A stretch of 64,000 bases of DNA from an uncultured Thermoleophilia bacterium (GCA_963829205.1 CAWHHT010000005.1:8082-72081), one strand, 5' to 3'. Positions 10,940 through 35,293 are shown, counted from the first letter of the stretch. The notes: generated by a model from the letters alone, not told the origin. Numbers and translations: made by a program.

Positions 10940-12247
10940 TCAGCAGAGGTCGTCGACGGCCGCGTCCGTCGGCAGGCCGGCCGTGACCGGCTCCGCCGGC
11001 AGATGGCCGGCCCGCCGGGCCTGCGCGGCCCGCATCGCTTCAAGCGCGGCCGGGAAGGGCTGCAGCGCGCGCTCGAAGATCCCGAGGCTGAAGGCGATCA
11101 CCAGCCCGTAGTTGGTGATCGGTACGCCCGCCTGCTTGCAGCGCAGGATGCGCCCCAGCATCGCGCGCCTGTTGAAGGTGCAGGCGCCGCAGTGGACGAT
11201 CAGGTCCCAGCCGGACGGGTCGTCGGGGAAGTCGTGCCCCTGCATGTGCTCGATGTTGAGCTTGCCGCCCACGTACTGGGTGAGCCAGCGCGGGATCTTG
11301 ACGCGCCCGATGTCCTCGGCGATGGGGTGGTGGCTGCAGGCCTCGGCGATGAGCACGTTGGCGCCGCTCTTGAGGTCGTCCACCGCCAGCGTGCCCTCGA
11401 CCTGGCTCACAAGGTCGCCCTTGAAGCGGCTGAAGAGGATGCTGAAGCTCGTCATCGGCACCTCGGGCGGCGTGTCGGCCGCCACCTTGAGGAAGGCCTG
11501 CGAGTCGGTGACGACGAGCTTCGGCGGCACCGTGAGGCGCTCGAAGGCGCTGCGGAGCTCACGCTCCTTGACCACGAGCGCCAGCGCGTCGCTGTCCATG
11601 AGGTCGCGGATGCTCTGCACCTGCGGCAGGATCAGGCGCCCGCGCGGCGCCTCCTTGTCGATCGGTACCACGAGCACGGCGAGCTCGCCGCTGTTGACGA
11701 GGTCGCCGAGGATCGTCGGGTTGTCGATGAAGTCCGGGGGCGCCGCGTCGAGCAGCGCCTGGCGGAAGTCGAGCACTCCGCGGCCCTCGCTCGCGGCGGT
11801 CAGCACCGGCGCGATCTTGAGCTCCTGCAGCCGCGGCACCGGCGCCGGCTTGCCGACCAGATCGCACTTGTTGAACACCACCACGACCGGCGCCTTGCGC
11901 TCGAGCAGCTCGTCGAGGATGCCGTCCTCGTACTCGCCCCAGCTGCCGGCCTCGGTGACCAGCACGCCGAGGTCCGTGCGGTCGAAGACCTGCGTCGTGC
12001 GTCTGGCGCGCAGCTCGCCGAGGACGCCGACGTCGTCGATGCCGGCGGTGTCGATGAACAGCACGGGGCCCAGAGGCAGGAGCTCCATCGGCTTCTCGAC
12101 GGGGTCCGTGGTCGTGCCGGCGAAGTCCGAGACGATGCTGACGTCCTGTCGCGTGATGGCGTTGAGCAGGCTGCTCTTGCCGACGTTGCGGCGGCCGAAG
12201 ATGCCGATGTGCAGCCGCATGCCGCGGGGTGCGTCCATCAGGCCCAT
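10940..12247 (-). CDS. hydF: [FeFe]-hydrogenase H-cluster maturation GTPase HydF
   Basis: G1 motif GRRNVGKSS, G3 motif DTAG, NKCD, and C-terminal cluster-binding CSHH...HCGAC. Confidence 0.9.
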   Translation of the reverse strand: MGLMDAPRGMRLHIGIFGRRNVGKSSLLNAITRQDVSIVSDFAGTTTDPVEKPMELLPLGPVLFIDTAGIDDVGVLGELRARRTTQVFDRTDLGVLVTEAGSWGEYEDGILDELLERKAPVVVVFNKCDLVGKPAPVPRLQELKIAPVLTAASEGRGVLDFRQALLDAAPPDFIDNPTILGDLVNSGELAVLVVPIDKEAPRGRLILPQVQSIRDLMDSDALALVVKERELRSAFERLTVPPKLVVTDSQAFLKVAADTPPEVPMTSFSILFSRFKGDLVSQVEGTLAVDDLKSGANVLIAEACSHHPIAEDIGRVKIPRWLTQYVGGKLNIEHMQGHDFPDDPSGWDLIVHCGACTFNRRAMLGRILRCKQAGVPITNYGLVIAFSLGIFERALQPFPAALEAMRAAQARRAGHLPAEPVTAGLPTDAAVDDLC

Positions 12248-12250
12248 GAG

Positions 12251-13681
12251 CTAGTCCTCCACCGGGCGCCCGAGCGGCTGCGGGTGGCCGAGGCGGCACA
12301 CGGCCTCCGGCGTGAGCAGCTCCTCGTAGGCCTCGGCCGTCAGCAGCCCGTCGGCGACGACGACGTCGCGGATCGTCTCTCCCCGCTCGGCGGCCTTTGC
12401 GACCACGGCGCAGGCCGCCTCGTAGCCGATCTCCGGCACCAGCGCCGTGGCGGCCGCGCTCGAGGCCCGGACGTGCGCGGCGCAGCGCTCTTCGTCGGCC
12501 TCGATGCCCTCGACGCAGTTGCGGCGCAGCGTCTCGCAGGCGCGGGCAAGCAACGTGAGGCTGTCCAGCAGGCAGGTCGCGACGAGGGGCAGGAACGCGT
12601 TGAGCTCGAGGCTGCCGAGGCCGCAGGCGGCGGCGATGGTGGCGTCGTAGCCCATGACGAGCAGCGCCACCTGGCTCACGGCCTCCGGGATCACCGGGTT
12701 GACCTTGCCGGGCATGATGCTGGAGCCGGCCTGCCGCCGCGGCAGGCGGATCTCGCCGAGCCCCGCCTCCGGCCCCGAGCTCATCAGCCGCAGGTCGCCG
12801 CAGATCTTGAGGAGGTTGACCGCGTGCGCCTTGAGGATGCCCGAGACCTCCACGAACACGTCGGCGTTCTGCGTGGCCTCGGTGAGGTTCTCGGCGCGCG
12901 CGAAGCCCACGCCGGTGAGCTCACGCAGCGTGTCGACGACGCGGAAGATGTACTGGCGCGGCGCGCCGAAGCCGGTGCCGATGGCGGTGCCGCCGAGGTT
13001 GACCACGCGCAGGCGCTCCTCGCACTTGTAGATGCGCCAGCGGTCGCGGTTGAGCGCCTCGGCGTAGGCGCCCATCTCGCGCCCGAGCGTGGTGAGGACG
13101 GCGTCCTGGTACTGCGTGCGGCCGACCTTGACGACGTGCGCGAACTGCTGCTCCTTCTGCTGGAACGCCTCCTGCAGGGTGACGACCTGGTCCTCCAGGC
13201 GGTGGAGCAGGGTGATCGCCGCCAGGCGCAGTGCGGTGGGGAAGGTGTCGTTCGTGCTCTGGTGGAGGTTGACGTCGTCGAGCGGCGAGACGCGGGCATA
13301 CGTCCCCAGCGGCTCGCCGAGCAGCTCCAGGGCGCGGTTGGCCAGCACCTCGTTCACGTTCATGTTGGTGCTGGTGCCGGCGCCGCCCTGCAGACGGTCG
13401 ACGACGATCTCGGCCGCGAGCCCGCCGTCGGCCAGCTCGCGGCAGGCGCGCTCGATGGCGTCCGCCTTGGCGTCATCCGCGGCCCAGGCGCCGAGCGCCC
13501 GGTTGGTGCGCGCGCAGGCGAGCTTGACCATGCCGAAGGCGCGGGCGAGCTCCGGGTGCACCGGCTCGCCCGCGAGCGGGAAGTTGTCGAGGGCGCGCTC
13601 GGTGTGCGCGCCGTGCAGGCTCTGCGCCGGCACGGCGACCTCACCGAGCAGGTCGCGCTCGATCCTCGTCTCGTCGCTCAC
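12251..13681 (-). CDS. aspA: Aspartate ammonia-lyase (aspartase/fumarase superfamily)
   Basis: GGAGTSTNMNVNEV (aspartase-type, not the SGSGTQ of fumarase), HQSTNDTFP, and GSSIMPGKVNPVIPE signature. Confidence 0.85.
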   Translation of the reverse strand: MSDETRIERDLLGEVAVPAQSLHGAHTERALDNFPLAGEPVHPELARAFGMVKLACARTNRALGAWAADDAKADAIERACRELADGGLAAEIVVDRLQGGAGTSTNMNVNEVLANRALELLGEPLGTYARVSPLDDVNLHQSTNDTFPTALRLAAITLLHRLEDQVVTLQEAFQQKEQQFAHVVKVGRTQYQDAVLTTLGREMGAYAEALNRDRWRIYKCEERLRVVNLGGTAIGTGFGAPRQYIFRVVDTLRELTGVGFARAENLTEATQNADVFVEVSGILKAHAVNLLKICGDLRLMSSGPEAGLGEIRLPRRQAGSSIMPGKVNPVIPEAVSQVALLVMGYDATIAAACGLGSLELNAFLPLVATCLLDSLTLLARACETLRRNCVEGIEADEERCAAHVRASSAAATALVPEIGYEAACAVVAKAAERGETIRDVVVADGLLTAEAYEELLTPEAVCRLGHPQPLGRPVED

Positions 13682-13714
13682 GGACGGCTCGTGGGGTCGG
13701 GCGGCTGGTCGGAG

Positions 13715-14019: not shown

Positions 14020-15423
14020 TCAGCAGAGCACGTCGCGCTCGCCGCCCCGCACCTTGTCCAGCATCTTCTGGGTGTGGGCGCGACGCACGTCGTCCATCTC
14101 GCGCACGCGCTGCTCGATGAGCTTCTCGCCGATCTCGCGCGTGCTCTCCGTGCCGTAGTCGAGGAGGTACTCCTCGAAGGTCGCCAGCGCGTTGGGGTCG
14201 CAGTGATGCTTGATGTCGCCGGGCTTGGCGAGGTCCATGAAGTCCATGCCGGTGCGGCCGAGCCGGTAGCAGGCGGTGCAGAACGAGGGCACGTACCCGA
14301 GCTCGGCGACGTCGCGGATGACCTCGTCGAGCGAACGGTGGTCGCCGAGCTGGAACTGCGCCGAGTCGAACTTCTCGTTCTCCTCGTAGCCGCCGGGGTT
14401 GGTGCGGCTGCCGGCGGAGATCTGGCTGACGCCGAGCGCGAAGGTCTCGCGGCGCAGGTTGGCCGTCTCCCGGGTGCTCATGATCATGCCGGTGTACGGC
14501 ACGGAGAGGCGCAGGATGGCGACGATCTTGCGGAAGTCGATGTCGCCGACCGGCTGTGGCGGGTGGCTCGCCATGTCGGAGCCGCTGGCCGGCTCCAGGC
14601 GCGGCATGCTGATCGTGTGCGGCCCGACGCCGAAGGCGCGCTCGAGCTCGCGCACGTGCTGCATGAGCGCGAGCAGCTCGAAGCGCCAGTCGTAGAGGCC
14701 GAAGAGCACGCCGATGCCGACGTCGTCGATGCCGGCCTCCATGGCGCGGTGCATCCCGGTCACGCGCCAGTCGTAGTCCTTCTTCCTGCCGCCCAGGTGC
14801 ACGGCCGCGTACGTGGCGCGGTGGTAGGTCTCCTGGAAGAGCTGGAAGGTCCCGATGCCGGTGGCCTTGAGGGCCTTGAAGTCCGGCACGGAGAGAGGCG
14901 CGATGTTGACGTTGACGCGGCGGATCTCGCCGTTGCCGCGTTTGACCTCGTAGATGGTGGCGATCGAGTCGAGCACGTAGCCGAAGCCCTGCTTGGGATA
15001 GGACTCCCCGGCCACGAGGAGGATGCGCTTGTGACCCTGGTCGACGAGCAGCTCGGTCTCGTGGCGGATCTCCGCCTGGGTGAGCGCGCGGCGCTTGAGC
15101 TCCTTGTTGCGCACGCGGAAGGCGCAGTACATGCAGTCGTTGCTGCACAGGTTGCTGATGTACAGCGGCGCGAAGAGGACCAGGCGCGGGCCGTAGATGG
15201 CGTCCTTGACGTCGCGCGCCGCGGCGAACAGCTCGCCGAGCAGCTCGGGGTCGCTCACCGAGCTGAGGATGGCCACGTCTTCCATGTCGAGACCCTTGAG
15301 CTCGCGCGCCTTGGCGAGGATCTCGCGCACGCGACCTGCGTCTTTGGTGGAGGCCGCCCCAAGGGCTTCGCCGATGGCGGCCTCGTCGATGAACGCTCCC
15401 GTTTCCACGACTCTGGTGCTCAT
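14020..15423 (-). CDS. hydG: [FeFe]-hydrogenase H-cluster radical SAM maturase HydG
   Basis: Radical SAM motif CSNDCMYC and C-terminal cluster region SFCTACYR. 467 aa, typical HydG length. GAGGAG RBS. Confidence 0.9.
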   Translation of the reverse strand: MSTRVVETGAFIDEAAIGEALGAASTKDAGRVREILAKARELKGLDMEDVAILSSVSDPELLGELFAAARDVKDAIYGPRLVLFAPLYISNLCSNDCMYCAFRVRNKELKRRALTQAEIRHETELLVDQGHKRILLVAGESYPKQGFGYVLDSIATIYEVKRGNGEIRRVNVNIAPLSVPDFKALKATGIGTFQLFQETYHRATYAAVHLGGRKKDYDWRVTGMHRAMEAGIDDVGIGVLFGLYDWRFELLALMQHVRELERAFGVGPHTISMPRLEPASGSDMASHPPQPVGDIDFRKIVAILRLSVPYTGMIMSTRETANLRRETFALGVSQISAGSRTNPGGYEENEKFDSAQFQLGDHRSLDEVIRDVAELGYVPSFCTACYRLGRTGMDFMDLAKPGDIKHHCDPNALATFEEYLLDYGTESTREIGEKLIEQRVREMDDVRRAHTQKMLDKVRGGERDVLC

Positions 15424-15451
15424 GTAGTACTCCTCATCCGACGCTCGCCGG

Positions 15452-16786
15452 TCACGCGCACTCTGGCGTCGCCGGTATCTCGAAACAGAACTTCGCCCAC
15501 TCGCCGTGCTTGGACTCGGCGGTGATCCGACCTTGATGCAATTGGATGATGCGCCACGCGTTGTACAACCCGACGCCGGTGCCGCGGCGGTTCTTGAGGG
15601 CCGGGTCGTCGAGGCGCGAGAAGCGCCTGAACAACTGGTTCTTCTGTGCCTGGCTGAAGCCGGGCCCCTGATTGCACACGGCGATCTTGAGCTTGGCCGA
15701 GCTGCCGCGCCGCGCCGGCGTGACCTCGGCCGTGACCTTGACCTCGCCGCCGTCGAGGCCGTACTTGACGGCGTTGTCGAGGAGATTGACGAGGACGATG
15801 CGCAGCAGCGTCGGATCGCAGCACACGAGGGCCGAGCCGGTCGCCGGCATCTCGGTGATCAACCGCATGCCGCGCGCCTCCAGCTGCGGGCGCACGAGGT
15901 CCAGCGCCTCCTCGACGACCTCCACGCTCACGTCCACCTTCGAGCAGCGCTCCAGCTGGAGCTCGCCGCCCTCGACGCGCGCCAGGTCGAGGTATTCGTT
16001 GACGAGGCTGAGGAGGTACTGGCCCTTGCGGGTGATGCCGGCGAGCTTGCCTTTCTGGACGTCGGTGAGCTCGCCCAGGTAGCCCTGTTCGAGCAACTGC
16101 GCGTCCGTCACCATCGAGGCCACCGGGCTCTTGAGCTCGTGACTGACGAAGCCGAGCATCTGCGTGTAGGCGTAATTGGCCTCCTCGAGCTGCGCGATGC
16201 GCCACGCCTTCTCCACCGCCTGGCTGAGGCGCTCCGTGATCGCCATCTGCAGCTCGATGTGCCGCGGCCGGTACGTGTGCGTGCGCCGCGAGCTGCGGAA
16301 GATGAAGCCGACCACGCGGCCCTCCACGCTCAGCGGGCAGGTGAGGTTGGAGCGCACGCCCTCCTGGACGAGGCGCTTGGTGGAGCGGCTGCGCGGGTGC
16401 GCCCCGAGGTACAGGTCGAGGTTGCCGATGATGCGCGGCTGCCCGGTCTCGAGCACCTCGTGAAGAGACGTCTGCTGCAGTGCCTCCGAGTAGTCCTTGT
16501 CTATGGCGAGCGGCGCGTAGGAGGCGCGGTTGTAGTAGCTCGTGACGCGCTCGCCGCGCTCGTCGACGAAGGCCAGCCCGATGCGGTCGCAGGGGATGAG
16601 CTCCTGGGTGTTGTCGAACAGGTAGTCCACGATGGCGCGCAGGGAGGGGCGCGCGGCGATCTTCTGGTTGACCGTACGCAGGATCTTGCGCTCGTCCGGC
16701 GTGATCGGCGTGAGCACGCGCGCGTCGTGGAACGGGTCGACGAAACGGGCGGTCGACGGCGGCGTCTGATTGACGTGTTTGCCCAT
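15452..16786 (-). CDS. GAF-domain sensor histidine kinase
   Basis: N-terminal GAF-like region, HisKA FVSHELKSPV, and HATPase NLLDNAVKY...GTGVGLY. Confidence 0.8.
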   Translation of the reverse strand: MGKHVNQTPPSTARFVDPFHDARVLTPITPDERKILRTVNQKIAARPSLRAIVDYLFDNTQELIPCDRIGLAFVDERGERVTSYYNRASYAPLAIDKDYSEALQQTSLHEVLETGQPRIIGNLDLYLGAHPRSRSTKRLVQEGVRSNLTCPLSVEGRVVGFIFRSSRRTHTYRPRHIELQMAITERLSQAVEKAWRIAQLEEANYAYTQMLGFVSHELKSPVASMVTDAQLLEQGYLGELTDVQKGKLAGITRKGQYLLSLVNEYLDLARVEGGELQLERCSKVDVSVEVVEEALDLVRPQLEARGMRLITEMPATGSALVCCDPTLLRIVLVNLLDNAVKYGLDGGEVKVTAEVTPARRGSSAKLKIAVCNQGPGFSQAQKNQLFRRFSRLDDPALKNRRGTGVGLYNAWRIIQLHQGRITAESKHGEWAKFCFEIPATPECA

Positions 16787-16830
16787 GGACCTCGCTCGGA
16801 GTGAGCCTGCTTCCCTAGTGTAAGCGAAGC

Positions 16831-16863
16831 GGCGGCGGGGCGCTCGGGGAGCGCCCCGCCGCC
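16831..16863 (-). terminator. 15-bp perfect GC stem hairpin immediately after the hydA stop
   Basis: GGCGGCGGGGCGCTC-GGG-GAGCGCCCCGCCGCC read directly. It lies 20 nt downstream of the hydA stop codon on the minus strand. Confidence 0.5.
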
Positions 16864-16882
16864 GCGGCCAGCATGACGCCTG

Positions 16883-20551: not shown

Positions 20552-20965
20552 TCAACTCTCCTTCGCGAGCAGCTTCTTGACCTTGGCGACGAGCGTCTGC
20601 GGGTCGACCGGCTTGGGCTGGAACTCGTCGACCGGGACCATCTCTTCGTCCTTGTCGATGTTGAGGCCCATCGCCGCGTTGACGCTCGTGAGCATGATGA
20701 TCGGCAGGGTGTGCCCCGCCTTGCGGATCTCGCGCGCCATGCGCAGGCCGTCGTCGGGCTCTTCCATCATGACGTCGAGGATGAGCAGGTCCGGACTTGC
20801 CTCCTCGAGCTTCAGCATGCCGGCGGCGCGATTGGGCGCCCCCTCGACCTCGTAGCCCTCGCGCTCGAGGACGAGGCGTCCGGCCTCGACGATGTCCGGG
20901 TCGTCGTCAACGATCAGGATCTTGGGCACCTCAGACTCCCTCTCTCGGTTACCGTTCCCCTCCAC
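20552..20965 (-). CDS. Stand-alone CheY-like response regulator receiver (no output domain), first gene of hydrogenase operon 1
   Basis: KILIVDDDPDIV...DLLILDVMM...LTS...K motifs; 137 aa. Confidence 0.85.
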   Translation of the reverse strand: MEGNGNRERESEVPKILIVDDDPDIVEAGRLVLEREGYEVEGAPNRAAGMLKLEEASPDLLILDVMMEEPDDGLRMAREIRKAGHTLPIIMLTSVNAAMGLNIDKDEEMVPVDEFQPKPVDPQTLVAKVKKLLAKES

Positions 20966-21156
20966 ACGCCTCGGAAGAGGCGTTCTGCGACGGCCCGTGA
21001 CCGCGCTCTCATGCGCACGCCCGAGGCGCTCGCCGGCAGGCGCCAGCGAGGCTTGGAGGTGCGGTGAGATGCCGATCGGTGCGGGCCACTTACTCCACAG
21101 GATCCACGTTCAACTGGGCCACAGCTGCTGACTCGTTTCTAACGCGTTTTCGACGC

Positions 21157-25135: not shown

Positions 25136-26912
25136 TCAGACGCGGTCGTGCTCGAAGTAGTGCGTGTGCAGCAGGTGGTGCGAGATCTCGCCGCACGGCG
25201 CCCCGAGGTACTCGTCGTACAGGGCGCAGACGGCCGCGTTCTCGTGCGACTTGCGCACCTCGCGGCCCTCGTCCTCGCGGTAGATCGCGCGCCATGCGCG
25301 CCTTGCGCACCTCGTTGGTGGTGAAGCGCGGCTGGCCGCCGCCGCCGATGCACCCGCCGGGGCAGGTCATGACCTCGACGAAGTGGCACTCGATCTCGCC
25401 GCTCTTGACCCGGTCGATGAGCTTCTGCGCGTTGCCGAGGCCGTGGGCCACGCCGACCTTGAGGTCGGCGCCTTCGAGGAACGCCCAGTCGCCCTTGGCG
25501 CCCTCGACCTTGACGGTCGCCATCTTGACGCCTTCGAGACCGACGATGGGCTCGACGTGCAGGTTGGGGAACGGGAACGGCGTCTCGGTGACGATCTCCC
25601 ACACGGTGCGCAGGGCCGCCTCCATGACGCCGCCGGTGTTGGCGAAGATGTCGGCGGCGCCGGTGCTGATGCCGAGCGGCGCGTCCATCTGCTCGTCGTG
25701 CAGGCCGCGGAAGTCGATGCCGGCCTGCTTGATCAGGGCGCCGAGCTCGCGCGTCGTGAGCACGATGTCGACGTCGCGCACGCCGCTGTCGTTCATCTCC
25801 GGCCGCGCCGCCTCGTACTTCTTGGCGGTGCAGGGCATGACCGAGACGACGACCATGTCCTCCGGCTTCACGCCGATCTTCTCGGCGTAGTAGGTCTTGG
25901 CGATCGCCCCGAACATCTGCTGCGGGCTCTTGCACGGTGCTGAGGTTGTCGAGCATGTCCGGGTTGAAGTGCTCCATGTAGTTGATCCAGCCCGGGGAGC
26001 AGCTGGAGAACTGCGGCAGACGCCACCGTCTCGCCGTCCACGAGGGCCTTCTTGAGCCGCACCAGCAGCTCGGTGCCCTCCTCCATGATGGTGAGGTCGG
26101 CGGTGAAGTCGGTGTCGAACACCGCGTCGAAGCCGAGGCGGCGGAGGGCGGCGACCATCTTGCCGGTCACCAGGGTGCCGGGCGCGTAGTCGAAGCACTC
26201 GCCGAGGGCGGCGCGGATGGCAGGAGCGGTCTGCACGATCACCGTCTTGGTGGGATCCTCGAGCGCGTCCCAGACCTCGTCGATCTGGTTGCGTTCCTGG
26301 ATCGCGCCCACGGGGCAGACGGCGGCGCACTGGCCGCACTGCACGCAGACGACGTCGCTGAGGTTCTGCCGCGAAGGCCGGGCCGATGAGCGTGGCGAAG
26401 CCGCGGCCCTGGGCGAAGAGGCCGCCCACTTGCTGGACCTCGTTGCAGACGGTGACGCAGCGGCGGCAGGAGATGCACTTGCCGGTGTCGCGCACGAGCG
26501 CCGGCGTGCTGTCGTCGATCATCTTGAACGTCTTCTCGCCCTGGTAGCGTAGCTCGCCGATGCCCAGGTCGAGAGCGAGGCTCTTGAGCTCGCAGTCGGC
26601 GGAGCGGCCGCAGACCTGGCAGTCGCCGTCGTGCTCCGAGAGGAGCAGTTCGACGACCATCTGGCGGCCGTCGCGCACCTTGCCGGTATTGGTCTTCACG
26701 ACCATGCCGTCGGTGGCCGGCTGGCTGCACGAGGCGACCAGCGTGCGGGCGCCTTCCACCTCGACGAGGCAGACGCGGCAGGCGCCGATGGACTGGACTT
26801 CGTCGAGGTAGCAGAGGGTCGGGATCTTCACGCCGGCCTGACGGGCGGCTTGAAGGACCGTAGTGCCCTCCGGGACCTCGACCTTGATGTCGTCAATGGT
26901 GAGGGTTGGCAT
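25136..26912 (-). pseudogene. hydA: [FeFe] hydrogenase catalytic subunit HydA, copy 2; conserved sequence recoverable only across 4 frame changes
   Basis: [16 protein letters not shown]...ACRVCLVEVEG, then CVQCGQCAAVCP (second frame). Then LPQFSSCSPGWINYMEHF (third frame). Then CKSPQQMF...MPCTAKKYE...VMTCPGGCIGGGGQP. Then IYREDEGREVRKSHENAAV...HTHYFEHDRV stop at 25136. Breaks lie near 26370, 26020, 25935 and 25290. Confidence 0.8.
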
Positions 26913-26930
26913 CCTTCAGCACTCCTTGCT

Positions 26931-29900
26931 TTACGAGCAGTACTTGCCGTAGTCGCAGCGCAGGCAGCGCCGTGCCTCGGCGATGGCTGTCTGTGCGGCC
27001 CAGCTGAGCTCGACCTCGTCGAAGTTGGAGACGCGCTGACCCACCGGCAGCTCCTCGACCGCATGGCGGTCGACAAGCTCCGGGTCGGCGTCGGGATCGA
27101 ATGACACGGGCGGCTCGATGTCGCGGCGCCAGAAGGCGTGGTTGGCGCCGGTCAGGTACTCGTCCATGCCCGCCGCCGCGCGCTCGCCGGCGCCGATGGC
27201 CTCGACCACCGAAGACGGGCCGGTGGTGGCGTCGCCGCCGGCGAACACCCACTCGGTCGACGTCTTGCCCGTGTCGGGGTCGGCGGAGAAGTAGCCCCAG
27301 CGGTTGAGCTCGATGGGCGTGCCGTCCACGATCGCCGGCGCGTCCAGGGACTGGCCGATGGCGGCGATCACGGTGTCGGCCTCGACCACGAAGTCGGGGT
27401 TGTGGCCGGCCACGGGGCGGCGACGACCACTCTTGTCGTAGTCGCCGAGCGCCATCTCCTTGCAGCGCACGCCGGTGACCTTGCCGCTCGCGTCGCGGAC
27501 GATCTCCTCCGGGGCCACGAGGGTGAGGATCTCGATGCCCTCGAGGTCGGCGGCGTCGATCTCCTCGCCCCACGCCGGCATCTGCGCGCGCGTGCGGCGG
27601 TAGAGGATCTTGACCGACTCGGCGCCGAGGCGCAGGGCGGTGCGGGCGGCGTCGATGGCCGCGTTGCCGCCGCCGATGACGGCGACGTTCTTGCCCACCT
27701 CGCCGGTGCCGCTGCACGTTGTACTGCTTGAGGAAGGAGAGCCCGTCGTACACGCCGGGGCCGTCCTCGCCGGGCACGCCGATCTTCATGCCCTGCGGGG
27801 CGCCGACACCGACGAACACGGTCTCGTAGCCCTCGTCCTTGAGGCTCTGCAGGGTGAAGTCGCGGCCGAGCGCCTTGCCGTACTCGAACGTGACGCCCAT
27901 GGCCTCGATCATCTTGACTTCGCGCTCGAGCTCCGGCCGCGGCAGGCGGTAGGCCGGGATGGCCTGCACGAGCATGCCGCCGGCCTTGGGCTCGGCCTCG
28001 AACACGACCGGCTTGTAGCCGAGGCGCGCCAGGAAGTAGGCGGCCGAGAGGCCGGCCGGCCCGGAGCCGACGACGGCGACCTTGCGGGCGGCGTTCTCGG
28101 CGTTCTCCTGGATCTCGGGCAGCTGCGGGTCCTGCTCCTGCTCCACCATGAAGCGCTTGACGTGGCGGATGGCGAGGGCCCCGTCGAGGCCGGCGCGCAT
28201 GCACTTGCTCTCGCAGGGATGGAAGCAGACGCGGGCGCAGATGCTGGCCAGCGGGTTGCGCTCGCGGTGCAGCTTGAGGGCCTCGTCGTACCGCTGCTCG
28301 CCGACGAGGCTCACGAAGCCGGGGATGTTGACGCTCGCCGGGCACGCGTTGGAGCAGCGCGCCTTGAACAGCGTGGCGCAGACGCCGGCCTCGCAGTACT
28401 TGTCCTTGATGTGGGCCTCGTACTCGTGACGGAAGTGGCGGATCGTCGAGAGCACGGGGTTGGGGGCCGTCTGGCCGAGGCCGCAGAGTGCGGTCTGGCT
28501 GATGGACTCGCCGAGGGCGATGAGGCGTTCGATGTCGCCTTCCTCGCCCTCGCCCTTGCAGATGCGGTCGACGATCTCGAGCATGCGCTTGGTGCCGACG
28601 CGGCAGGGCGGGCACTTGCCGCAGCTCTCTTCCTGGGTGAACTCGAGGAAGAACCTGGCGATGTCGACCATGCAGGTGTCCTCGTCCATGACGATGACGC
28701 CGCCGGAGCCCATGATGGCGCCCAGTTCCTGCAGGGTGGCGTAGTCGACCGGGACGTTGAGGTGCTGCTTGGGGATGCAGCCGCCGGACGGTCCGCCGAG
28801 CTGCGCGGCCTTGAAGGCCTTGCCGCCCGGGATGCCGCCGCCGATCTCGTAGATGAGCTCGCCGAGCTGCATGCCGATCGGCACCTCGACGAGGCCGGTG
28901 TGCTGCACGTTGCCGCCGAGCGCGAACACCTTGGTGCCCTTGCTCTTCTCGGTGCCCGTGCTGGCGTACCACTCGGCGCCCTTGAGGATGATCGGGGCGA
29001 TGTTGGCGAAGGTCTCGACGTTGTTGAGCACGCTGGGCTTGCCCCAGAGGCCCGAGACCGCCGGGAACGGCGGGCGCGGGCGCGGCTCGCCGCGGTGGCC
29101 CTCGATCGACGTCATGAGGGCCGTCTCCTCGCCGCAGACGAAGGCGCCCGAGCCCATGCGGATCTCGAGGTCGAAGTCGAAGCCGCTGCCCATGATGTCC
29201 TTGCCGAGCAGGCCGTACTCGCGCGCCTGCCCGAGCGGCGTGCTCGAGGCGCTCGACCGCGAGCGGATACTCGGCGCGCACGTAGACGTAGCCCTGGTGC
29301 GCGCCGATCGCGAAGGCGCCGATGACCATGCCCTCGATGAGCGAGTGCGGGTCGCCTTCGAGCACCGAGCGGTCCATGAACGCGCCCGGGTCGCCTTCGT
29401 CGGCGTTGCAGAGGATGTACTTGGTCTCGTTGTCCTGCTGCTGCGCGAAGCGCCACTTCATCCCGGTGGGGAAGCCGGCGCCGCCGCGGCCGCGCAGGCC
29501 GCTGGCGAGGACCTCGTCGACGACCGCTTCGGGCGTCATCGCGGTGAGCACCTTGGCGAGCGCCTGGTAGCCCTCGCGGGCGATGTACTCGTCGATCTTG
29601 AGCGGGTCGATGATGCCGGAGTTGCGCAGCACGATCTTCACCTGACGGTTGAAGAACGGGATGTCGCTCATCTCGGCCTGCGTCTTCTCGGTGCCGGGCG
29701 CGTGGCTCACGAGGCGCTCGACGATGCGCCCCTTGAGGAGGTGCTCCTCGACGATCTCGGGGACGTCGGCGAGCTGGACCTTCTGGTAGAACACGCCGTC
29801 CGGGTAGACGAGGGCGACCGGGCCCTGGACGCACGGTCCGAGGCAGCCGGTCTCGATGACCTCGACTTCGTCGGCGAGGTCGCGCGCCTTGAGCTCGGCC

Positions 29901-29986
29901 CGGACGGCCTCGCTCAGCTCGAGCGCTCCGGAGGCGATGCACCCGCCGCCGGTGCAGATCAGGAAGTGCGTTCTCACATCAGCCAT
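26931..29986 (-). pseudogene. NuoF-like flavoprotein fused to a GltD/NADPH-oxidoreductase-like module (about 1018 aa if repaired); 2 frame breaks
   Basis: Thioredoxin-like 2Fe-2S N-domain (HFLICTGGGC...GCLGPC). NuoF core ([37 protein letters not shown]). GltD part (CSNACP...[51 protein letters not shown]). Breaks lie near 29235 and 27710. Confidence 0.8.
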
Positions 29987-30003
29987 AGTCGTGTCACTCG
30001 CTC

Positions 30004-30376: not shown

Positions 30377-30977
30377 TCAGGCGCTCCTCGGGCTGCCCGC
30401 GAATTGCTCCGCAGGCTGGTCAGCCGAACGCCGCTCACTGCGTCCGCTCGTTTCCGCGAGCACGGGCTCCTCGGCGTACTGCGCCAGGATCTCGTGCACG
30501 CGCTTGGGCTTGACGCGGTGGTGGACGTCGTCGTCCACGGTGATGACGGGCGCGAGGCCGCAGGCGCCGAAGCAGCGTGCGATCTCGAGCGAGAACAGCG
30601 CGGTCCTCGGTGGTGCCGCCGATGTCGATGCCGAGCTGCTTCTTGAAGGCGTCGAGCACCTGGACGCCGCCGCGCACGTAACAGGCGGTCCCCATGCAGA
30701 TGCGGATCAGGTGCTTGCCGCGCGGGACGGTCGTGAAGAACGAGTAGAAGCCGACCACGCCGGCGACCTCGCTGTAGGGCTTGCCCAGCTCTCGGGCGAT
30801 GTGCTTGAGGGCGACCTCAGGCAGGTACCCGAAGATGCCCTGGGCGAGCTGCAGCACCGGGATGAGCGCCCCGGGCTTGCCTCTGTACTCGGCGATCACC
30901 GCGTCGAGGCGCGCGAGGAGCTCTTCCTCCGTCGGTTCCTCGTCGCAGCACGTGCACGCCTTGACCTCTTCACTCAT
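30377..30977 (-). CDS. NuoE-like [2Fe-2S] subunit, copy 2; one frame break near 30600
   Basis: IPVLQLAQ...ICMGTACYVRG...GGTTEDR, then in another frame LFSLEIARCFGACGLAPVITVDDD. The repaired reading ends at a TGA 1 nt before the ATG of the next gene. Confidence 0.8.
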
Positions 30978-31029: not shown

Positions 31030-31525
31030 TCATGACAGCGCCTCCTGATAGGCGACGAGCTCGGCGAGGCGGCGCGGCAGCTCGCTGCCGCGCAGCTCGA
31101 GCCGCTCTCCGTCGTCGCTCAGGTGCACGACGAACTCGACCTCCGGGTTGGTCGCGACCATCGTGAGGATGCTGGTCGCGACGTCGCCGAACGGCGGACG
31201 ATCCACGTTCCCGAGGCTCATCCAGGCGCGCACGGCGACCCCGCCGAGCTCGTCGGAGACCCCCACGTCGAGGCCGCCTCCGGCGGCCTCGGCGGCCTGG
31301 CGGAACAGGCTCAGCCCCAGGCCGGTCTTCTTGCTCCTTCTTGGTCGTGAAGAACGGGTCCAGCGCCTCGTCGGGAGTGACGGGCAGGCCGGGACCGTCG
31401 TCTTCGACGGTGATCGTGAGCCTGTCGGCGGCGCGGTCGGCGGCGATGGTCACGGCCACCGCGCCGGCGCCCGCACGCAGCGAGTTCTCGAGCACGTCGA
31501 GCAGGTACAGCGAAAGGTCATGCAT
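31030..31525 (-). CDS. Stand-alone GHKL/HATPase_c ATP-binding protein of the hydrogenase regulatory cassette; one frame break near 31330
   Basis: LLDVLENSLRAGA...ITVEDDGPGL...DPFFTTKK, then in another frame KTGLGLSLFRQAAEAAGG... Confidence 0.65.
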
Positions 31526-32259
31526 CGGCGACGCTCCTGCCGTCTGCGCCGCGCAGGGCGAGGGCGAGCTCGGCGAAGCTCGGCGCCATCACGTTCAACG
31601 GGTGCGCACGGCGCCGATGTCGTCCGAGGTAGTGGCTGTCCGAGGAGTGCAGGATGGGCAGCCCGTGCCGGCGGAACGCGCTCCTCGGCCTCGGAGCCCG
31701 GCGCCACGTGGCGGCTGAGCTCGACGGCGTCGAAGCCGGCCTCGTGCGGGAAGAGGCCGAGCTGGCCGATGACGCCGAACGAGCGGCGGTCGATGTGCGC
31801 CGCGACGGCGAGGCCGCCGTGCCGGTGGACGAGGTCGACGACTTCGGAGATGGCGAGCGGCGTTGCCATGGCGAGCGCCGCGCGCTCTTCGCCGGCGCGG
31901 GTCCCGTCGGCGGCGAGCACGAGCTGCTCGCCGAAGAAGGCCGCGTAGCCGTCGTCGGCCGGAGGCAGCGCGGCCTCGAGCTCCGCGCCGGCGGCTTCGG
32001 CGGCCGCGGCGGCGGGGAAGAGGCCGACGACGTGGCACTCCTCGGCCGAGGTGATCTCCATGCCGGCGAGGACGGCGAGGCCGTCGCCGGCCGCCTCCTG
32101 CACGGCGGCGGCGTTGCGCGCGCTGTTGTGGTCGCAGACGGCGATCATGGCCAGTCCTTCAGCGATCGCCTTCGCGACGATCGCCGGCGGCGTCATCGCG
32201 TTGTCCGCGCAGGGCGAGAGCGCCGTGTGGATGTGCAGGTCTGCGGCGCAGACGTTCAC
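31518..32259 (-). pseudogene. PHP (polymerase/histidinol phosphatase) domain protein; at least 1 and probably 3 frame breaks in the 3' third
   Basis: ADLHIHTALSPCA...IAVCDHN...AAHIDR. After SEAEER the conserved tail FRRHGLPILHSSDSHYL..DDIGAVRTR..APSFAELALALRG is split over other frames. The repaired stop at 31518 overlaps the next ATG (ATGCATGA). Confidence 0.75.
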
Positions 32260-32609
32260 GCATGGTTCCCTTTCACGCCCAGCGCGTAGAGCCGGCCGAC
32301 GATGTCGAAGGTGTCGGCGGGCGACACGTACAGCGAGATGCCCTCGGCGGCGGCCTTGGCGAGCACGTCGTCCTCGGGGCGGCGGTTGCCGGCGAAGATG
32401 ACGGCGGCGAGCTCGGCGTGGCTGGCGACGGCGATGACGTTGAGGTGCACCTGCAGCGTGACGAGCACGCCGCCCTCGGGCGCGTGCGCGAGCACGTCGC
32501 TCAGGAGGTCGGAGGCGTAGCCGCGCGCGATCTCGGCGTCGCCGTTGCCGGCGACCTCGGGTGTGAGCTCGGACAAGCCGAGCTCGCGGGCGATCTCCTC
32601 GAGCTTCAT
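32256..32609 (-). CDS. DRTGG domain protein (copy 2), intact
   Basis: MKLEEIARELGL...GYASDLLSDVLAHA..GGVLVTLQVHLNVIAVA. Confidence 0.7.
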   Translation of the reverse strand: MKLEEIARELGLSELTPEVAGNGDAEIARGYASDLLSDVLAHAPEGGVLVTLQVHLNVIAVASHAELAAVIFAGNRRPEDDVLAKAAAEGISLYVSPADTFDIVGRLYALGVKGNHA

Positions 32610-32624
32610 GACGCGGTCCCCTCC

Positions 32625-34176
32625 TCAGGCTTCACGTACGGGCAGAGCGCGCGGGCCGGCGCGCCCCATGACGATGTCTTCGGCGAGCGCCGCGCAGGTG
32701 GGCGCGCCGCACACGCCGCAGTCCTTGCCGGGCAGCGCGGCAGTCTCGGCGTCGAGCTGCGCGAGCTTGCGGATGGCGACCGCCATGTCGGCGTCCAGGC
32801 GGATGCCCGGGCGGGCGCGGAACGGGCGGCTGCGCGCGAGACTGCGCCCACCGTCGCCTCCGTCGCCGGCCGAGGCCGCCCAGCGCCAGGAGGCCACGAA
32901 CGCGTCCTCGGCGAGGAGCGGCGAGCCGAAGCAGCCGCCGTCGCAGATGTAGGGCTCGACGGCGGCGACTCCGCCGAGCCGGCCGTCCTCGATCTCCTCG
33001 AGCACGGCGAGCACGTGCGAGACGCCGGTGACGACCAGCAGGTCGTCGGCGCCGGCCGCCTGCGGCCGCGGCGCCCCGCCGTCCGCGCGTCGGCCGCCGC
33101 GCCGCGAGGCGCGGCAGGAGCGCGTCGCGGACGAGCCGGACGGTGACCGTCTGGCGCTGCGCCGTCGGCTGCTGGCTGAGCAGCGCCGTGCGCTGGCTCG
33201 GGCACGAGACCGCGAACGTGGCGTCGCGCTCGCCGAGGTCGCGCTGGAGCGCCTCCCACGGGGAGGCGAGCGGCGCGAGGTGCGTGACGAGCGCCGGGAA
33301 CTTGAGCTCGATGAGGTTGACGACCGCCGGGCAGACCGGCGAGATCACCGGCGCCGGCCCATCGCCGGTCGCGGCTCGGTCGAGCACGTCGCGGCGCAGC
33401 GCGTCCTCGTACGGGATGCACGGAGACGACCTCGCGAGTAGCCGAGCGCGCGCAGCTCGTCGAGGACCGTGGCCGGCCGGGTGCTCGCCGAAGCCGGCGA
33501 GGAGCGCCGGCGGGACGGCGAGCACGCCGCCGTCGCCGTGGAGCTCGCCGGGCGCGTCCAGCATCGTGAGCGCGCGCGGCGCGCAGGCGGCGATGCAGCA
33601 GGTGCAGTCGATGCAGACGTGGTCCATCACCGACGGCCGCGCGTCGCGCACGCGCACGGCGGCCGTGGGGCAGGCGACCAGGCAGTGGCGGCAGTCGCGG
33701 CACAGCTCGGGGACCGTGCCCAGCGACGAGGGCCGCGCGCCCTGGTCGGCCGCTTCTGGCCGCAGCATCACGGAGAAGCTCACGCGCGTGCCTTCGCCGA
33801 CCGTGGACGTGACGCGGATGCGGTCGCTGTTGCGCTCGATGTTGGGCAGGCCCATGCCGGCGCCGAAGCCGAGCGCGCGCGCCTCCGCAGGAGGCGGTGG
33901 AGAAGCCCTCGTGCATCGCCCGCGGGATGTCCGGGATGCCCGGCCCGCGGTCGACGACGTCGACGTCGAGCTGGCCGTCGCTCACGGTGGCTTCGAGGCG
34001 ACCGCCGTCGGCGTGGATGACGACGTTCATCTCGGCCTCGTAGGCGGCGATCATGGCGCGGCGCACGGCGTCCGACTCCGCGCCGATCCGCTTGAGGTGC
34101 TGCTTGAGGTCGCGGGAGGCCGCGCCCGCGCCGTTGAAGTCACCGCTGCGGATGTCGTAGTCGAGGTGCTCCAGGG
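32625..34176 (-). pseudogene. RsbW-like serine kinase (HATPase_c) fused to a 2x4Fe-4S ferredoxin, a degenerate [FeFe]-hydrogenase-like domain and a C-terminal CGxCGxxTC Fe-S motif; at least 4 frame breaks
   Basis: LEHLDYDIRSGDFNGAGAAS...VVDRGPGIPD...GFSTAS. Then EARALGFGAGMGLPNIERNSD...CRDCRHCLVACP...CIDCTCCIAACAP. Then VLDELRALGYS. Then VISPVCPAVVNLIE...AVSCPSQ. Then VEPYICDGGCFGSP...DCGVCGAPTCAALAEDIV. Breaks lie near 33890, 33465, 33420 and 33090. The start codon is unclear. Confidence 0.65.
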
Positions 34177-34564
34177 TCAGTTGCGCGCGTCTCCGCCGAG
34201 GTGGGCGTAGATGAGGCCGCAGGTCTCGAAGACGCCGGCGGGGGAGACCAGCAGGAGCGTGCCGTTGGTCTGCGCGAGCTCCACGACCTCGGGCTCCGGC
34301 TCGACGCCGTTGACGAAGCAGATGCCGGGCACGTCCATGAGCTCGGCCACGCGCAGCATCTGGACGCTGGCGAGGTTGCTCACGAGCAGCGTCTTGTCCG
34401 ACGGCCTCGTTGAGGAGGTCGCTGACGCGGTCGCCGGCGTAGATGCGGGAGACCTCAGTGCCCCCGGGCCGGCCGGGGGTGATGACGCGGGCGCCGATGT
34501 TCTCGGCCAGATCCTCGAGCTTCATGTTCGACCTCGCCAGCAGGGATTCCAGTTTCTTGACCAT
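34177..34564 (-). CDS. DRTGG domain protein (copy 1); one frame break near 34400
   Basis: MKLEDLAENIGARVI...IYAGDRVSDLLNEA, then in another frame SDKTLLVSNLASVQMLRVAELMDVPGICFVNG. The start is 34564 or 34525. Confidence 0.65.
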
Positions 34565-35252
34565 GGGCTCGATCTCGCCCTCGTCTGCGCCCGGCCGCGT
34601 CGCGCCCGCCGAGGCGGGCGAAGAACGCGGCCGACTCGAGGGCCGCCGTGATGTCCATGTACTCGACGAAGATGTCGTTGGGGAGGTGGAGGGGCACGGG
34701 CGCGAAGCTGATGATGCTCTTCACGCCCGCGCGCACGAGCGTGTCGGCGGCGTCCTGGGCGGCGCCGCCCGGGACGGTGAGCACCGCGATCTCGATGCCG
34801 AGGTCGCGCACGAGCGTCTCCATGCGCGACGCATCGAAGCAGCGGCAGCCGTGCACGCTGTGCTCGGTGAGGTCGGGATCGATGTCGAAGGCGGCGACGA
34901 TGGCGACGGCGGCGGACTCGCCCGCGAAGTGCGCGAGGACCGCGCGCCCGAGGTTGCCGACGCCGACGAGGGCCACGTCCTGGCGGTCTGCCGCACCGAG
35001 GAAGCTGCTGATGCTCTCGATGCAGGCGCCGACGTCGTAGCCCCTGTTGGGGCTGCCGGAGTAGCCGATCACCATGAGGTCGCGGCGCACCTGGGCGGCG
35101 CTGACCACGGCGTGGCGCGCGAGCTGGTGGGAGTAGATGCTCTCGACGCCCTCGTCGTGCAACGAGGCCAGCAGCCGCCGGTAGCGGCTCATCCGAGCTA
35201 CGGTCTTGCGCGATACCACGTAGGTCCCATGCTCCCCGAAGATTCGACCCAC
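34455..35252 (-). CDS. rex: Redox-sensing transcriptional repressor Rex (3' end uncertain: R-rich tail overlaps the next gene)
   Basis: VSRKTVARMSRYRRLL (winged-helix), Rossmann VALVGVGNLGRAVL, ...AVLTVP...FAPVPL. The conserved core ends near 34605. A GTG start at 35252 is proposed. Confidence 0.8.
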   Translation of the reverse strand: MGRIFGEHGTYVVSRKTVARMSRYRRLLASLHDEGVESIYSHQLARHAVVSAAQVRRDLMVIGYSGSPNRGYDVGACIESISSFLGAADRQDVALVGVGNLGRAVLAHFAGESAAVAIVAAFDIDPDLTEHSVHGCRCFDASRMETLVRDLGIEIAVLTVPGGAAQDAADTLVRAGVKSIISFAPVPLHLPNDIFVEYMDITAALESAAFFARLGGRDAAGRRRGRDRAHGQETGIPAGEVEHEARGSGREHRRPRHHPRPARGH

Positions 35253-35273
35253 TACGTTCGTTACGGAACAAAC

Positions 35274-35293
35274 GCTGTGAAATCTGTCACGAT
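35274..35293 (-). promoter_or_regulatory. Candidate Rex operator in the rex leader
   Basis: gcTGTGAAATCTGTCACGAt. Half-sites are TGTGAA and GTCACG, compared with consensus TTGTGAA-N4-TTCACAA. It lies about 22 nt upstream of the proposed rex start. Confidence 0.45.

Follow-up and report, generated by a model that had tools for sequence, protein, structure and literature searches.

A Rex-linked regulatory cassette with a kinase-fused, hydrogenase-like sensor at the head of a bifurcating-type [FeFe]-hydrogenase operon in an uncultured Thermoleophilia bacterium

A stretch of 64,000 nucleotides (nt) from an uncultured Thermoleophilia bacterium (GCA_963829205.1, CAWHHT010000005.1:8082-72081; called the window throughout, with positions counted from its first letter) carries on its minus strand, between 35293 and 31030, a cassette of regulatory genes that forms the head of a HydABC-type (electron-bifurcating-type) [FeFe]-hydrogenase operon. 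With reading frames corrected, the cassette encodes a Rex repressor extended by a DRTGG domain (rex-DRTGG_A), a SpoIIAB-type kinase fused to a hydrogenase-like iron–sulphur (Fe–S) sensor, a free-standing DRTGG protein (DRTGG_B), a PHP phosphoesterase and a further GHKL-type ATPase (GHKL2), and is followed on the same strand by nuoE, a ferredoxin gene, nuoF-gltD and hydA. What the sequences show directly is the identity of each domain, catalytic motifs that are intact, a conserved gene order, three gene fusions and a conserved operator; on this basis we tentatively propose that a signal would pass from the sensor to the kinase, from the kinase to a DRTGG domain and from there to Rex; we infer all of the interactions and the direction of effect. 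The cassette might, with the same reservation, add a second, Fe–S-sensed input to the NADH sensing of Rex.

For tracing of reading frames through the window (~70% guanine + cytosine, GC), three-frame translation was combined with a frame plot of GC at third codon positions. The domains and motifs named in a preliminary description of this DNA were all located by Pfam and translation at 35293-31030 on the minus strand, and the peptides quoted there were all recovered by three-frame translation, but they proved discontinuous across frames. The raw window holds 12 frame-breaking indels within the cassette, 11 of them single-base insertions, so that what had been described as five intact regulatory genes were proteins stitched across frameshifts that had gone unnoticed. 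Two frame changes fall in rex-DRTGG_A, six in the kinase–sensor fusion, three in the PHP gene and one in GHKL2; DRTGG_B is the sole cassette gene intact in the raw window. Pfam searches with the hand-stitched proteins returned Put_DNA-bind_N and CoA_binding for Rex, DRTGG twice (both just below cut-off), HATPase_c_2/HATPase_c, Fer4 (4Fe-4S dicluster), Fe_hyd_lg_C and FeS (PF04060) for the fusion, PHP and PHP_C, and HATPase_c for GHKL2. Structural genes (30977-25142, minus strand) were assigned from called genes and Pfam matches of two intact relatives, L002 and L001, which blastn places collinear with the window from ppk through the sensor kinase at 82 and 92.5% nt identity, respectively. They encode a NuoE-like protein (start 30977), a thioredoxin-like [2Fe-2S] ferredoxin, NuoF-GltD (~1017 amino acids) and HydA (~590 amino acids). 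Stop and start codons overlap at three cassette junctions (ATGA, GTGA and ATGCATGA), indicating a single translationally coupled operon.

The first gene, rex-DRTGG_A (~340 amino acids), runs on the minus strand from GTG 35219 or ATG 35192 to a TGA at 34179-34177, with raw-window insertions (+1) at ~34589, in the linker, and at 34404. Rex extends to ~34600, the linker occupies ~34600-34530 and DRTGG_A ~34528-34180. The first DRTGG had been taken for a separate gene; in the intact relatives it is instead the C-terminal domain of Rex, within a single open reading frame (ORF) of 337 amino acids in L001 and 347 in L002. The same fusion is present in L003, a sister assembly from the same ENA series, and at seven more actinomycetotal loci. 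Identity of the N-terminal part as Rex follows from Pfam PF06971 and PF02629, from NCBIfam NF003995 (186.7 bits for the L002 orthologue, against a cut-off of 126) and from the Rossmann motif GVGNLG; the NCBIfam Rex match to rex-DRTGG_A (3.8e-55) is confined to residues 2-201. Among the 120 Rex-DRTGG_A protein clusters listed (335-348 amino acids, covering 96-100% of the query), every source-named one is labelled plain 'Rex', and the DRTGG Pfam domain is recorded on none.

Rex is an NADH/NAD+-sensing repressor of fermentation and hydrogenase genes. Upstream of rex-DRTGG_A, on the minus strand, a promoter with a -35 box TTGACA (35320-35315), a 17-nt spacer and a -10 box GAGAAT (35297-35292) is overlapped at its -10 box by a Rex box, TCGTGACAGATTTCACAG (35292-35275), whose function is suggested by the known Rex operator consensus. 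A pattern search of the window for Rex boxes gave two matches against 0.21 expected. The operator block, AGAGAATCGTGACAGATTTCACAGCGTTTGTTC.GTAACGAACGTAGTG (47 nt), is identical in L001-L003 within intergenic DNA that has otherwise diverged, and we regard this conserved, operator-like inverted repeat as a putative Rex operator. Canonical Rex boxes were also found 46-87 nt upstream of rex at four further loci (L006, L007, L046 and L047). Two other elements are identical in L001-L003: a direct repeat, TTTGTCCATCTTGTCCA, upstream of the -35 box (35349-35333), and a palindrome, CGTTTGTTCCGTAACGAACG, just downstream of the Rex box (35274-35255); they may be sites for another regulator or for a second Rex dimer. 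The second Rex-like box of the window, TCGTGACGGCTTGCACA (21174-21158, minus strand), is intergenic and lies upstream of a response-regulator gene at 20555-21109, which suggests another Rex-controlled operon in the window, led by that response regulator.

The kinase–sensor fusion (~521 amino acids; 34174-32606, minus strand, stop TGA 32608-32606) follows rex-DRTGG_A. The preliminary description had proposed a four-part fusion, and its domains are indeed present and form one ORF, not several, after correction; the raw window itself yields seven segments in three frames within 1.57 kb, with insertions (+1) at 33888, 33472, 33434, 33412, 33082 and 32659. The stitched protein has 1426 homologues, the closest of which, encoded on contig L001, is intact, 525 amino acids long and 90% identical. 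Its parts are a SpoIIAB-type GHKL domain (~34174-33760), two CxxCxxCxxxC [4Fe-4S] motifs (~33700-33580), a body resembling the hydrogenase H-domain with four cluster cysteines (~33560-32850) and a C-terminal Cx2Cx4Cx16C motif (~32740-32640).

A profile of the kinase domain matched SpoIIAB (E=1.8e-11) and RsbW (1.7e-5) in the PDB, and two AlphaFold2 models matched SpoIIAB with Foldseek template modelling (TM) scores of 0.79-0.85, in agreement with the anti-sigma-type kinase named earlier (0.85 for the better match). The ATP-binding boxes, on which an ATP-lid check had been suggested, are intact and invariant from Actinomycetota to Clostridia (N-box YEAEMN, G1 DxGPG, G2 GFGAGxGLPN), and the lid itself is there. 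By alignment and by model, this is a GHKL domain of the SpoIIAB/RsbW type with intact catalytic motifs.

For the sensor body, conservation of the cluster ligands was uniform. The cysteines of the two [4Fe-4S] motifs (C158/161/164/168 and C187/190/193/197) do not vary in sets of 18 and of 64 homologues, with Pfam Fer4_10 just under cut-off, and the C-terminal motif, CGVCGAPTC followed after 16 residues by a further Cys, matches Pfam FeS PF04060 (5e-10) with its cysteines likewise invariant. For pocket comparison, 79 cassette sensors (16 fused to the kinase, 63 encoded as split genes) were aligned with HydA. The four cysteines of the H-cluster cubane (C300, C355, C499 and C503 in CpI numbering) are kept by all 16 fused and all 63 split sequences. 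The position of the proton-relay Cys299 is Val, Ala or Ile in fused sensors and Ala in 59/63 split ones, and is Cys in none of the 79. At the remaining pocket positions the two forms part: Met353 is replaced by V (8), A (6), I (1) or T (1) in the fused sensors and by S/T in 60/63 split ones; Lys358 is Q (15) or E (1) in the fused set and K in 59/63 of the split; Pro354 is missing in 16/16 fused and present in 63/63 split sequences. Gln326-Arg327 shows no variation among 64 fused proteins. Lys358 is a contact residue of the [2Fe] subcluster's distal CN ligand (PMC10147833), and replacement of Met353 by a hydroxyl residue (Ser/Thr) is described as well conserved in M2e (PMC8163306). The altered pocket (Val/Ala, no Pro354, Gln/Glu at Lys358) marks the fused lineage as a divergent branch, and a canonical H-cluster in its sensor is doubtful to judge from these residues. 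As with the pocket, the NCBIfam model FeFe_hydrog_B1 separates the fused sensor (2e-13) from its Thermoanaerobacteraceae orthologue (5e-49).

At the level of the predicted fold, the sensor body remains a hydrogenase: the AlphaFold2 model of the fusion (predicted local distance difference test, pLDDT, 85.6; predicted TM score, pTM, 0.83) gave TmHydA, CbA5H, CpI and DdH as top Foldseek matches (E ~1e-9), along with SpoIIAB. Its residue pattern places the body among the relatives of the group D / M2e putative sensory [FeFe]-hydrogenases, as a divergent one. 'Degenerate hydrogenase-like', the wording used previously, is thus fair for the fused lineage, but the protein belongs to this named class. 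The only characterized member, TamHydS of Thermoanaerobacter mathranii, binds an H-cluster and shows low activity and high H2 affinity (PMC8163306). The present sensor shares with group D TamHydS (PMC8163306, PMC11803613, PMC13104023) the two [4Fe-4S] motifs, the four H-domain cysteines and the C-terminal Cx2Cx4Cx16C cluster; it is also like TamHydS in the replacement of Cys299 (Ala in TamHydS) and in lacking a PAS domain, none being found in the kinase–sensor fusion by Pfam or homologue searches. Like group D sensors, it is encoded upstream of a multimeric group A (bifurcating-type) hydrogenase. Two features are unlike group D, namely the SpoIIAB-like ATPase fused at the sensor N-terminus and a pocket that lacks Lys358 and Pro354 and nearly always Ser/Thr353, residues which the split clostridial genes largely keep.

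The DRTGG proteins are the candidate partners of the kinase. DRTGG_B (117 amino acids; 32609-32256, minus strand) is free-standing, and its ATG overlaps the stop codon of the fusion (ATGA). Single DRTGG sequences score 20-22 bits against a Pfam cut-off of 25.2, and DRTGG_B alone falls below threshold (E=1.6e-4); Pfam lists PF07085 on many DRTGG-kinase fusions. A profile built from 35 A- and B-type sequences matched PDB entries 2ioj (AF1212; 2.9e-6) and 3l2b (the regulatory region of a CBS-pyrophosphatase; 5.5e-5) and, more weakly, the N-domain of HPr kinase (HprK/P, 1ko7), and the DRTGG model superposed on 2ioj with a Foldseek TM score of 0.77. The upstream, A-type domain and the downstream, B-type domain are paralogues distinct from each other. 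In the 35 sequences, from five phyla, D44 and S47 of a D-x-x-S motif are invariant and T61 is at least 90% conserved; in the AlphaFold2 model of a natural DRTGG-kinase fusion the serine is predicted to lie at the N-terminus of a helix, after a strand.

The distribution of the cassette was surveyed with one genome per species, and the 80 best loci together with L001-L003 (83 in all) were analysed for gene order. Relatives of the cassette occur in at least 575 species genomes of at least six phyla, among them Actinomycetota/Thermoleophilia, Spirochaetota, Brocadiia, Deltaproteobacteria/Myxococcota, Anaerolineaceae and many Clostridia, including Enterocloster citroniae DSM 19261 and Thermoanaerobacteraceae. 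The synteny survey called for by the preliminary description showed a strongly conserved order: the unit DRTGG_A–kinase–sensor–DRTGG_B–PHP hardly varies across the analysed loci, with DRTGG_B and PHP present in 66/68 loci that have adequate flanking sequence. Where a locus has 9 kb or more of flanking sequence on one side, nuoE-GHKL2-ferredoxin-nuoF-hydA lies within 10 kb, downstream or divergent, in ~70% of cases. Iterated hidden Markov models for GHKL2, HydA and ferredoxin drifted onto related domains, and a 'HydA+HydA' label on the split group D genes was discarded as a profile cross-match rather than canonical HydA.

Three independent fusions connect its parts with one another and with Rex. 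Kinase and sensor are adjacent separate genes in Clostridia (65 loci) and are fused in the other phyla (18 loci), the single ORF being found in Actinomycetota, Spirochaetota, Brocadiia and Deltaproteobacteria; the earlier statement that similar genes stand separately in Thermoanaerobacterales-type genomes is supported, Thermoanaerobacteraceae being among these Clostridia. Fusion ORFs called in spirochaetes and Deltaproteobacteria (580-680 amino acids) are much extended at the N-terminus, which was judged to be an artefact of ORF calling in high-GC DNA and not a sign of added domains. Kinase and DRTGG_A are fused in at least 120 protein clusters, e.g. in Thermosediminibacter, Caldanaerovirga and Thermovenabulum; at two Thermosediminibacteraceae loci (L024 and L047) a separate rex precedes such a fusion (~269 amino acids) with a 4-nt overlap. 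An AlphaFold2 model of a natural DRTGG-kinase fusion had a pLDDT of 90 and a pTM of 0.75, notwithstanding a disordered linker. The third fusion is that of DRTGG_A with Rex described above. Taken together, sensor–kinase, kinase–DRTGG_A and DRTGG_A–Rex suggest the chain sensor, kinase, DRTGG, Rex. Because of the natural DRTGG-kinase fusions, the DRTGG proteins are reasonable predicted partners of the kinase, as had been proposed.

Two cassette genes remain. PHP, a metal-dependent phosphoesterase of the PHP family (~246 amino acids; minus strand, GTG 32259 to TGA 31520-31518) overlaps the stop codon of DRTGG_B (GTGA) and is broken in the raw window at 31682 and 31627 (+1) and 31601/2 (-1). Its metal ligands (H9, H11, D43, H44, E68, H76, H155, D207 and H209, in the motifs HxH, DH, E, H, H and DxH) are invariant in 16 sequences from five phyla. 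GHKL2 (164 amino acids; minus strand, ATG 31525 to TGA 31032-31030) overlaps the PHP stop by 8 nt (ATGCATGA) and carries one insertion (+1), at 31333. It matches Pfam HATPase_c (1.3e-14), has no HisKA/DHp domain, and its NCBIfam matches are restricted to the C-terminal catalytic (CA) domains of sensor kinases; we take it to be an orphan histidine-kinase-type catalytic ATPase that has no phospho-acceptor domain. GHKL2 adjoins nuoE in 57/83 loci.

The mechanism that we favour, tentatively, would run as follows. Rex would sit on the operator overlapping the -10 box and repress its own operon until NADH rises. The hydrogenase-like body, with its two [4Fe-4S] motifs, the cubane at the H-cluster site and the C-terminal cluster, would report H2 or the redox poise of the ferredoxin pool, and its state would be relayed within one polypeptide to the fused SpoIIAB-type GHKL domain. 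This domain would bind DRTGG in place of STAS, as SpoIIAB binds SpoIIAA, and would probably phosphorylate the invariant serine of D-x-x-S. In Rex structures the C-terminal helix, which is domain-swapped, links the binding of NADH to release from DNA. DRTGG_A directly follows that helix, and for this reason its binding or phosphorylation, while tethered to Rex, would be expected to alter operator occupancy. Free DRTGG_B could act as a competitor or decoy, and the PHP phosphoesterase would reset the system.

A stronger form of this proposal, which we consider doubtful, is a new partner-switching circuit in which DRTGG replaces STAS, PHP replaces PP2C and Rex replaces the sigma factor, driven by an Fe–S sensor fused to the kinase. 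The kinase belongs to the family of the SpoIIAB-SpoIIAA-SpoIIE and RsbW-RsbV-RsbU modules by sequence and fold, and the predicted logic, with a small alpha/beta partner bearing a conserved serine and a dedicated resetting phosphoesterase, is that of such modules. The differences are equally plain, since STAS, PP2C and sigma factor are missing, DRTGG, PHP and Rex would have to substitute for them, and the kinase bears its own Fe–S sensor. No genes for STAS, PP2C or sigma factors were found in the operon or among the genes called within ~10 kb of it in the intact relatives, which bears out the earlier remark that a STAS partner and sigma factor are absent. As part of the same circuit, the fused lineage would no longer have the canonical [2Fe] site in its sensor, which would now respond to redox state alone, a step we also think rather unlikely.

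Several observations weigh against the chain ending in Rex. Rex lies inside the cassette in only 12/83 loci. Rex sites are 17-fold enriched upstream of cassettes, but a site with at most one mismatch was present at 8 loci only, mostly those of rex-bearing cassettes, and most clostridial loci have no Rex box at that threshold. When 73 of the unassigned ORFs lying nearest to split-type (clostridial) cassettes on either side were searched against Pfam, no recurrent DNA-binding family was found; the commonest family was C_GCAxxG_C_C (5/73), and a cassette-encoded transcription factor in Clostridia was rejected on this ground. With few Rex-bearing loci, few Rex boxes and no recurrent factor, the general output of the cassette may not be Rex, and these genomes do not show Rex control of cassettes to be general, Rex being a demonstrated genomic partner in some lineages only. 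The proposed resetting step is also called into question, in that the nearest solved relatives of PHP are RNase AM (7ug9, 4.4e-11), EndoQ and the 3',5'-bisphosphate nucleotidase-type entries 2yb1 and 3e0f, and no protein phosphatase of the CpsB/YwqE type was among its PDB profile matches at E<=0.1. Finally, the favoured mechanism leaves the role of GHKL2 unexplained.

An alternative in which the cassette acts on the hydrogenase enzyme rather than on transcription appears somewhat unlikely. The kinase or kinases, DRTGG and PHP would here modify or bind HydABC subunits or electron carriers and so gate activity or bifurcation, and the actinomycetotal Rex fusion would be a lineage-specific add-on. 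The shortage of DNA-binding proteins in or beside the cassette, which holds for most of the 83 loci, speaks for such a role, as do the position of GHKL2 within the clostridial structural operon, between nuoE and the ferredoxin gene, and the tight linkage of the cassette with hydABC on the same strand or divergently. However, hydABC is missing from the vicinity in ~30% of the loci whose flank reaches 9 kb or more on one side, and two unrelated lineages tie the module to a transcription factor, one by the Rex-DRTGG fusion and the other by a rex gene directly before DRTGG-kinase. To our knowledge, cassette proteins have not been reported in purified HydABC complexes, a further point against enzyme control.

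Signalling by a small nucleotide seems less probable again, and we hold it unlikely. The GHKL domains would then be switches that bind or hydrolyse ATP, DRTGG a ligand-binding or dimerization domain as in CBS-pyrophosphatases and Pta, and PHP a hydrolase of pAp, an oligoribonucleotide or a cyclic or linear dinucleotide. The structural relatives of PHP given above fit this account, as do its NCBIfam matches to RNase RNM and nucleoside bisphosphate phosphatase (both sub-cut-off) and the resemblance of DRTGG to the CBS-pyrophosphatase regulatory region and to the transcription factor SpxR. Against it, the kinase is specifically like SpoIIAB/RsbW, i.e. protein serine kinases, the DRTGG-kinase fusion and the invariant D-x-x-S suit the relationship of a substrate or partner, and the cassette encodes no nucleotide cyclase or synthetase.

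The integrity of the locus was assessed by polarizing indels in a four-way alignment of the window with L001, L002 and L003. The 11 single-base insertions placed above within the cassette genes are all private to the window, as are the 1-nt deletion at 31601/2 and a deletion of 2-3 nt through which the start codon of the fusion gene (34174) reads CTG in place of ATG. Across the 22 kb of compared sequence, insertions (+1) account for 24 of the 33 private 1-nt indels of the window. Non-cassette genes are broken in the same way, namely those for the M24-peptidase and rhomboid proteins (e.g. 38616, 38432 and 37962) and nuoE, nuoF and hydA (e.g. 30598, 29235, 27712, 26934, 26370, 26021, 25935, 25289 and 25136), and most of those in the cassette fall where they lengthen no homopolymer run. 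Between L003 and the clean L002 the identity is 97.8% and the encoded fusion protein is the same, yet L003 has 73 one-base and nine two-base insertions more, and its genes are fragmented in line with them. Third-position GC is 0.87-0.97 in each shifted segment. With private insertions removed, the ratio of nonsynonymous to synonymous substitution rates (dN/dS) between the window and L001 is 0.07-0.24 over all five cassette genes (0.09 for rex-DRTGG_A and 0.17 for the fusion). Because the relatives are intact, L003 shows like insertion noise and dN/dS is low, the frameshifts are best read as long-read assembly errors and not as signs of pseudogenes; the related genome records are 'MFD' metagenome-assembled genomes, which we take to be long-read assemblies.

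A decaying pseudogene cluster, with real indels, a truly lost start codon and a disappearing hydrogenase regulon, is highly improbable and was rejected. In its favour, private insertions are ~3x as frequent per kb in the cassette (10 in 3.3 kb) as in the remaining 18.7 kb (14), and the fusion gene lacks its ATG, but the breakage of housekeeping genes elsewhere, the prevalence of insertions without homopolymer extension, the noise in L003, the high third-position GC of the shifted segments and the low dN/dS all stand against it. The cassette is the most GC-rich part of the window (75%). A 63-nt insertion at 30389-30451, covering the nuoE 3' end and the spacer before the ferredoxin gene, is likewise private to the window and not present in L001-L003. 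In a deposited 638-amino acid protein (P0116, from a 611-kb contig held by NCBI and ENA), the fusion gene runs through an out-of-frame Arg-rich stretch into the DRTGG_B gene, indicating that assembly indels also affect deposited proteins of the clade. Coding sequences of the window cannot be used at face value, and any ORF-based reading of it needs frameshift-aware comparison.

Among known systems, group D sensory hydrogenases are the closest. Their genes precede those of bifurcating hydrogenases, and papers of 2020-2026 on the one member studied describe the way in which the signal is passed on as an open question (PMC8163306, PMC13104023); Carere et al. placed Athe_1292, TTE0887, Cthe_0335 and Teth39_1463 upstream of bifurcating hydrogenases and near kinases (PMC3561251). 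The TamHydS authors mention just a flanking 'histidine kinase-like ATPase' and ask how the signal is transduced (PMC8163306), and a 2026 study found that H2 does not reduce the C-terminal cluster and still called the mechanism open (PMC13104023). Group D orthologues in Clostridia occupy the same five-gene cassette. The sensor class, the link to Rex and the neighbouring kinase are already known. The full cassette with two DRTGG proteins and PHP, the three fusions, the altered pocket and the unannotated DRTGG on 'Rex' were not found in the searchable literature, and DRTGG/PHP partners and fusions were undescribed in what was searched, a body of work that mostly left out subscription journals; the review PMC8924675 is silent on group D, on kinases and on Rex.

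The group C HydS/hfsABCD system, shown to be regulatory by genetics (PMC5707799, PMC3848806, PMC3561251), likewise pairs a hydrogenase-like sensor bearing a C-terminal Fe–S cluster with a serine kinase and a phosphatase, and adjoins rex and a bifurcating hydrogenase; examples are HydS of Ruminococcus albus, hfs of Thermoanaerobacterium saccharolyticum and Cthe_0422-0431 of C. thermocellum (PMC5707799, PMC3848806, PMC3561251). In group C, however, the sensor carries PAS and the phosphatase is a PP2C (SpoIIE-type), whereas the present cassette has two DRTGG domains, PHP and a second ATPase. The hfs operon, cited in the preliminary description as a parallel, thus does not hold up as one, being this different PAS/PP2C-linked system (PMC5707799). 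HoxBC-HoxJ-HoxA of Cupriavidus necator, as reviewed in PMC5707799, also couples a low-activity hydrogenase to a kinase that controls hydrogenase transcription; its proteins are unrelated, consisting of a [NiFe] enzyme, a PAS histidine kinase and a response regulator. The Rex of the cassette is typical in its winged-helix N-domain, Rossmann GxGxxG motif and TGTGA-N6-TCACA-type operator over its own promoter, and atypical in the additional C-terminal DRTGG domain (~130 amino acids).

Several features of the structural operon were noted in passing. The NuoF-like subunit forms a single protein with a GltD/NfnB-like domain (Fer4_20 + Pyr_redox_2; ~1017 amino acids; window 26914-29990, L002:14121-17174). 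Such a long NuoF (1016-1149 amino acids) is found in every intact locus with a fused kinase–sensor, compared with ~596 amino acids in clostridial loci; the fused sensor may thus go together with another type of enzyme, possibly one linked to NADPH. Cassette-linked HydA has TSCSPGW in place of the textbook TSCCPxW in 38/43 loci (e.g. L001:12267-14039; window ~25142-26914), so that this motif is the usual form and was dropped as an anomaly. Downstream of hydA, on the minus strand, Pfam identified a receiver-only response regulator (24991-24578) and a histidine kinase with Fe_hyd_lg_C, FeS, HisKA and HATPase domains (~24565-22501); regulator and kinase correspond to L002:19113-21566. The window contains just two copies of the motif CGxCGxx[TS]C, one in the fusion gene (32720) and one in this sensor kinase (23388), and the earlier observation that the two share CGxCGxxTC, the kinase being placed at 22.5-24.5 kb, was accurate. 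Unlike the kinase-fused sensor, the downstream histidine kinase keeps the Pro-Cys-x-x-Lys pocket motif (VGPCIAKK in L002), and the hyd operon may carry two different sensors. Elsewhere in the window are genes for HydF (10943-12250), an aspartase/fumarase-type lyase (12254-13714), a radical SAM + BATS protein of the HydE/HydG type (14023-15858) and a GAF-HisKA-HATPase kinase (15455-16882). The presence of hydF and a hydE/G-type radical SAM gene implies that the cell can build the H-cluster cofactor.

If the proposed mechanism is true, one promoter would integrate NADH, through Rex, with ferredoxin or H2, through the sensor, these being substrates of the very bifurcating hydrogenase that is controlled. 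The question of how group D sensors relay their signal becomes testable in concrete terms: which DRTGG is bound, whether its serine is phosphorylated and whether DNA binding by Rex changes. The answer bears on how fermenters divide flux between H2 and ethanol or acetate. Annotation is affected too, since hundreds of proteins entered as 'Rex' carry an unrecognized extra domain.

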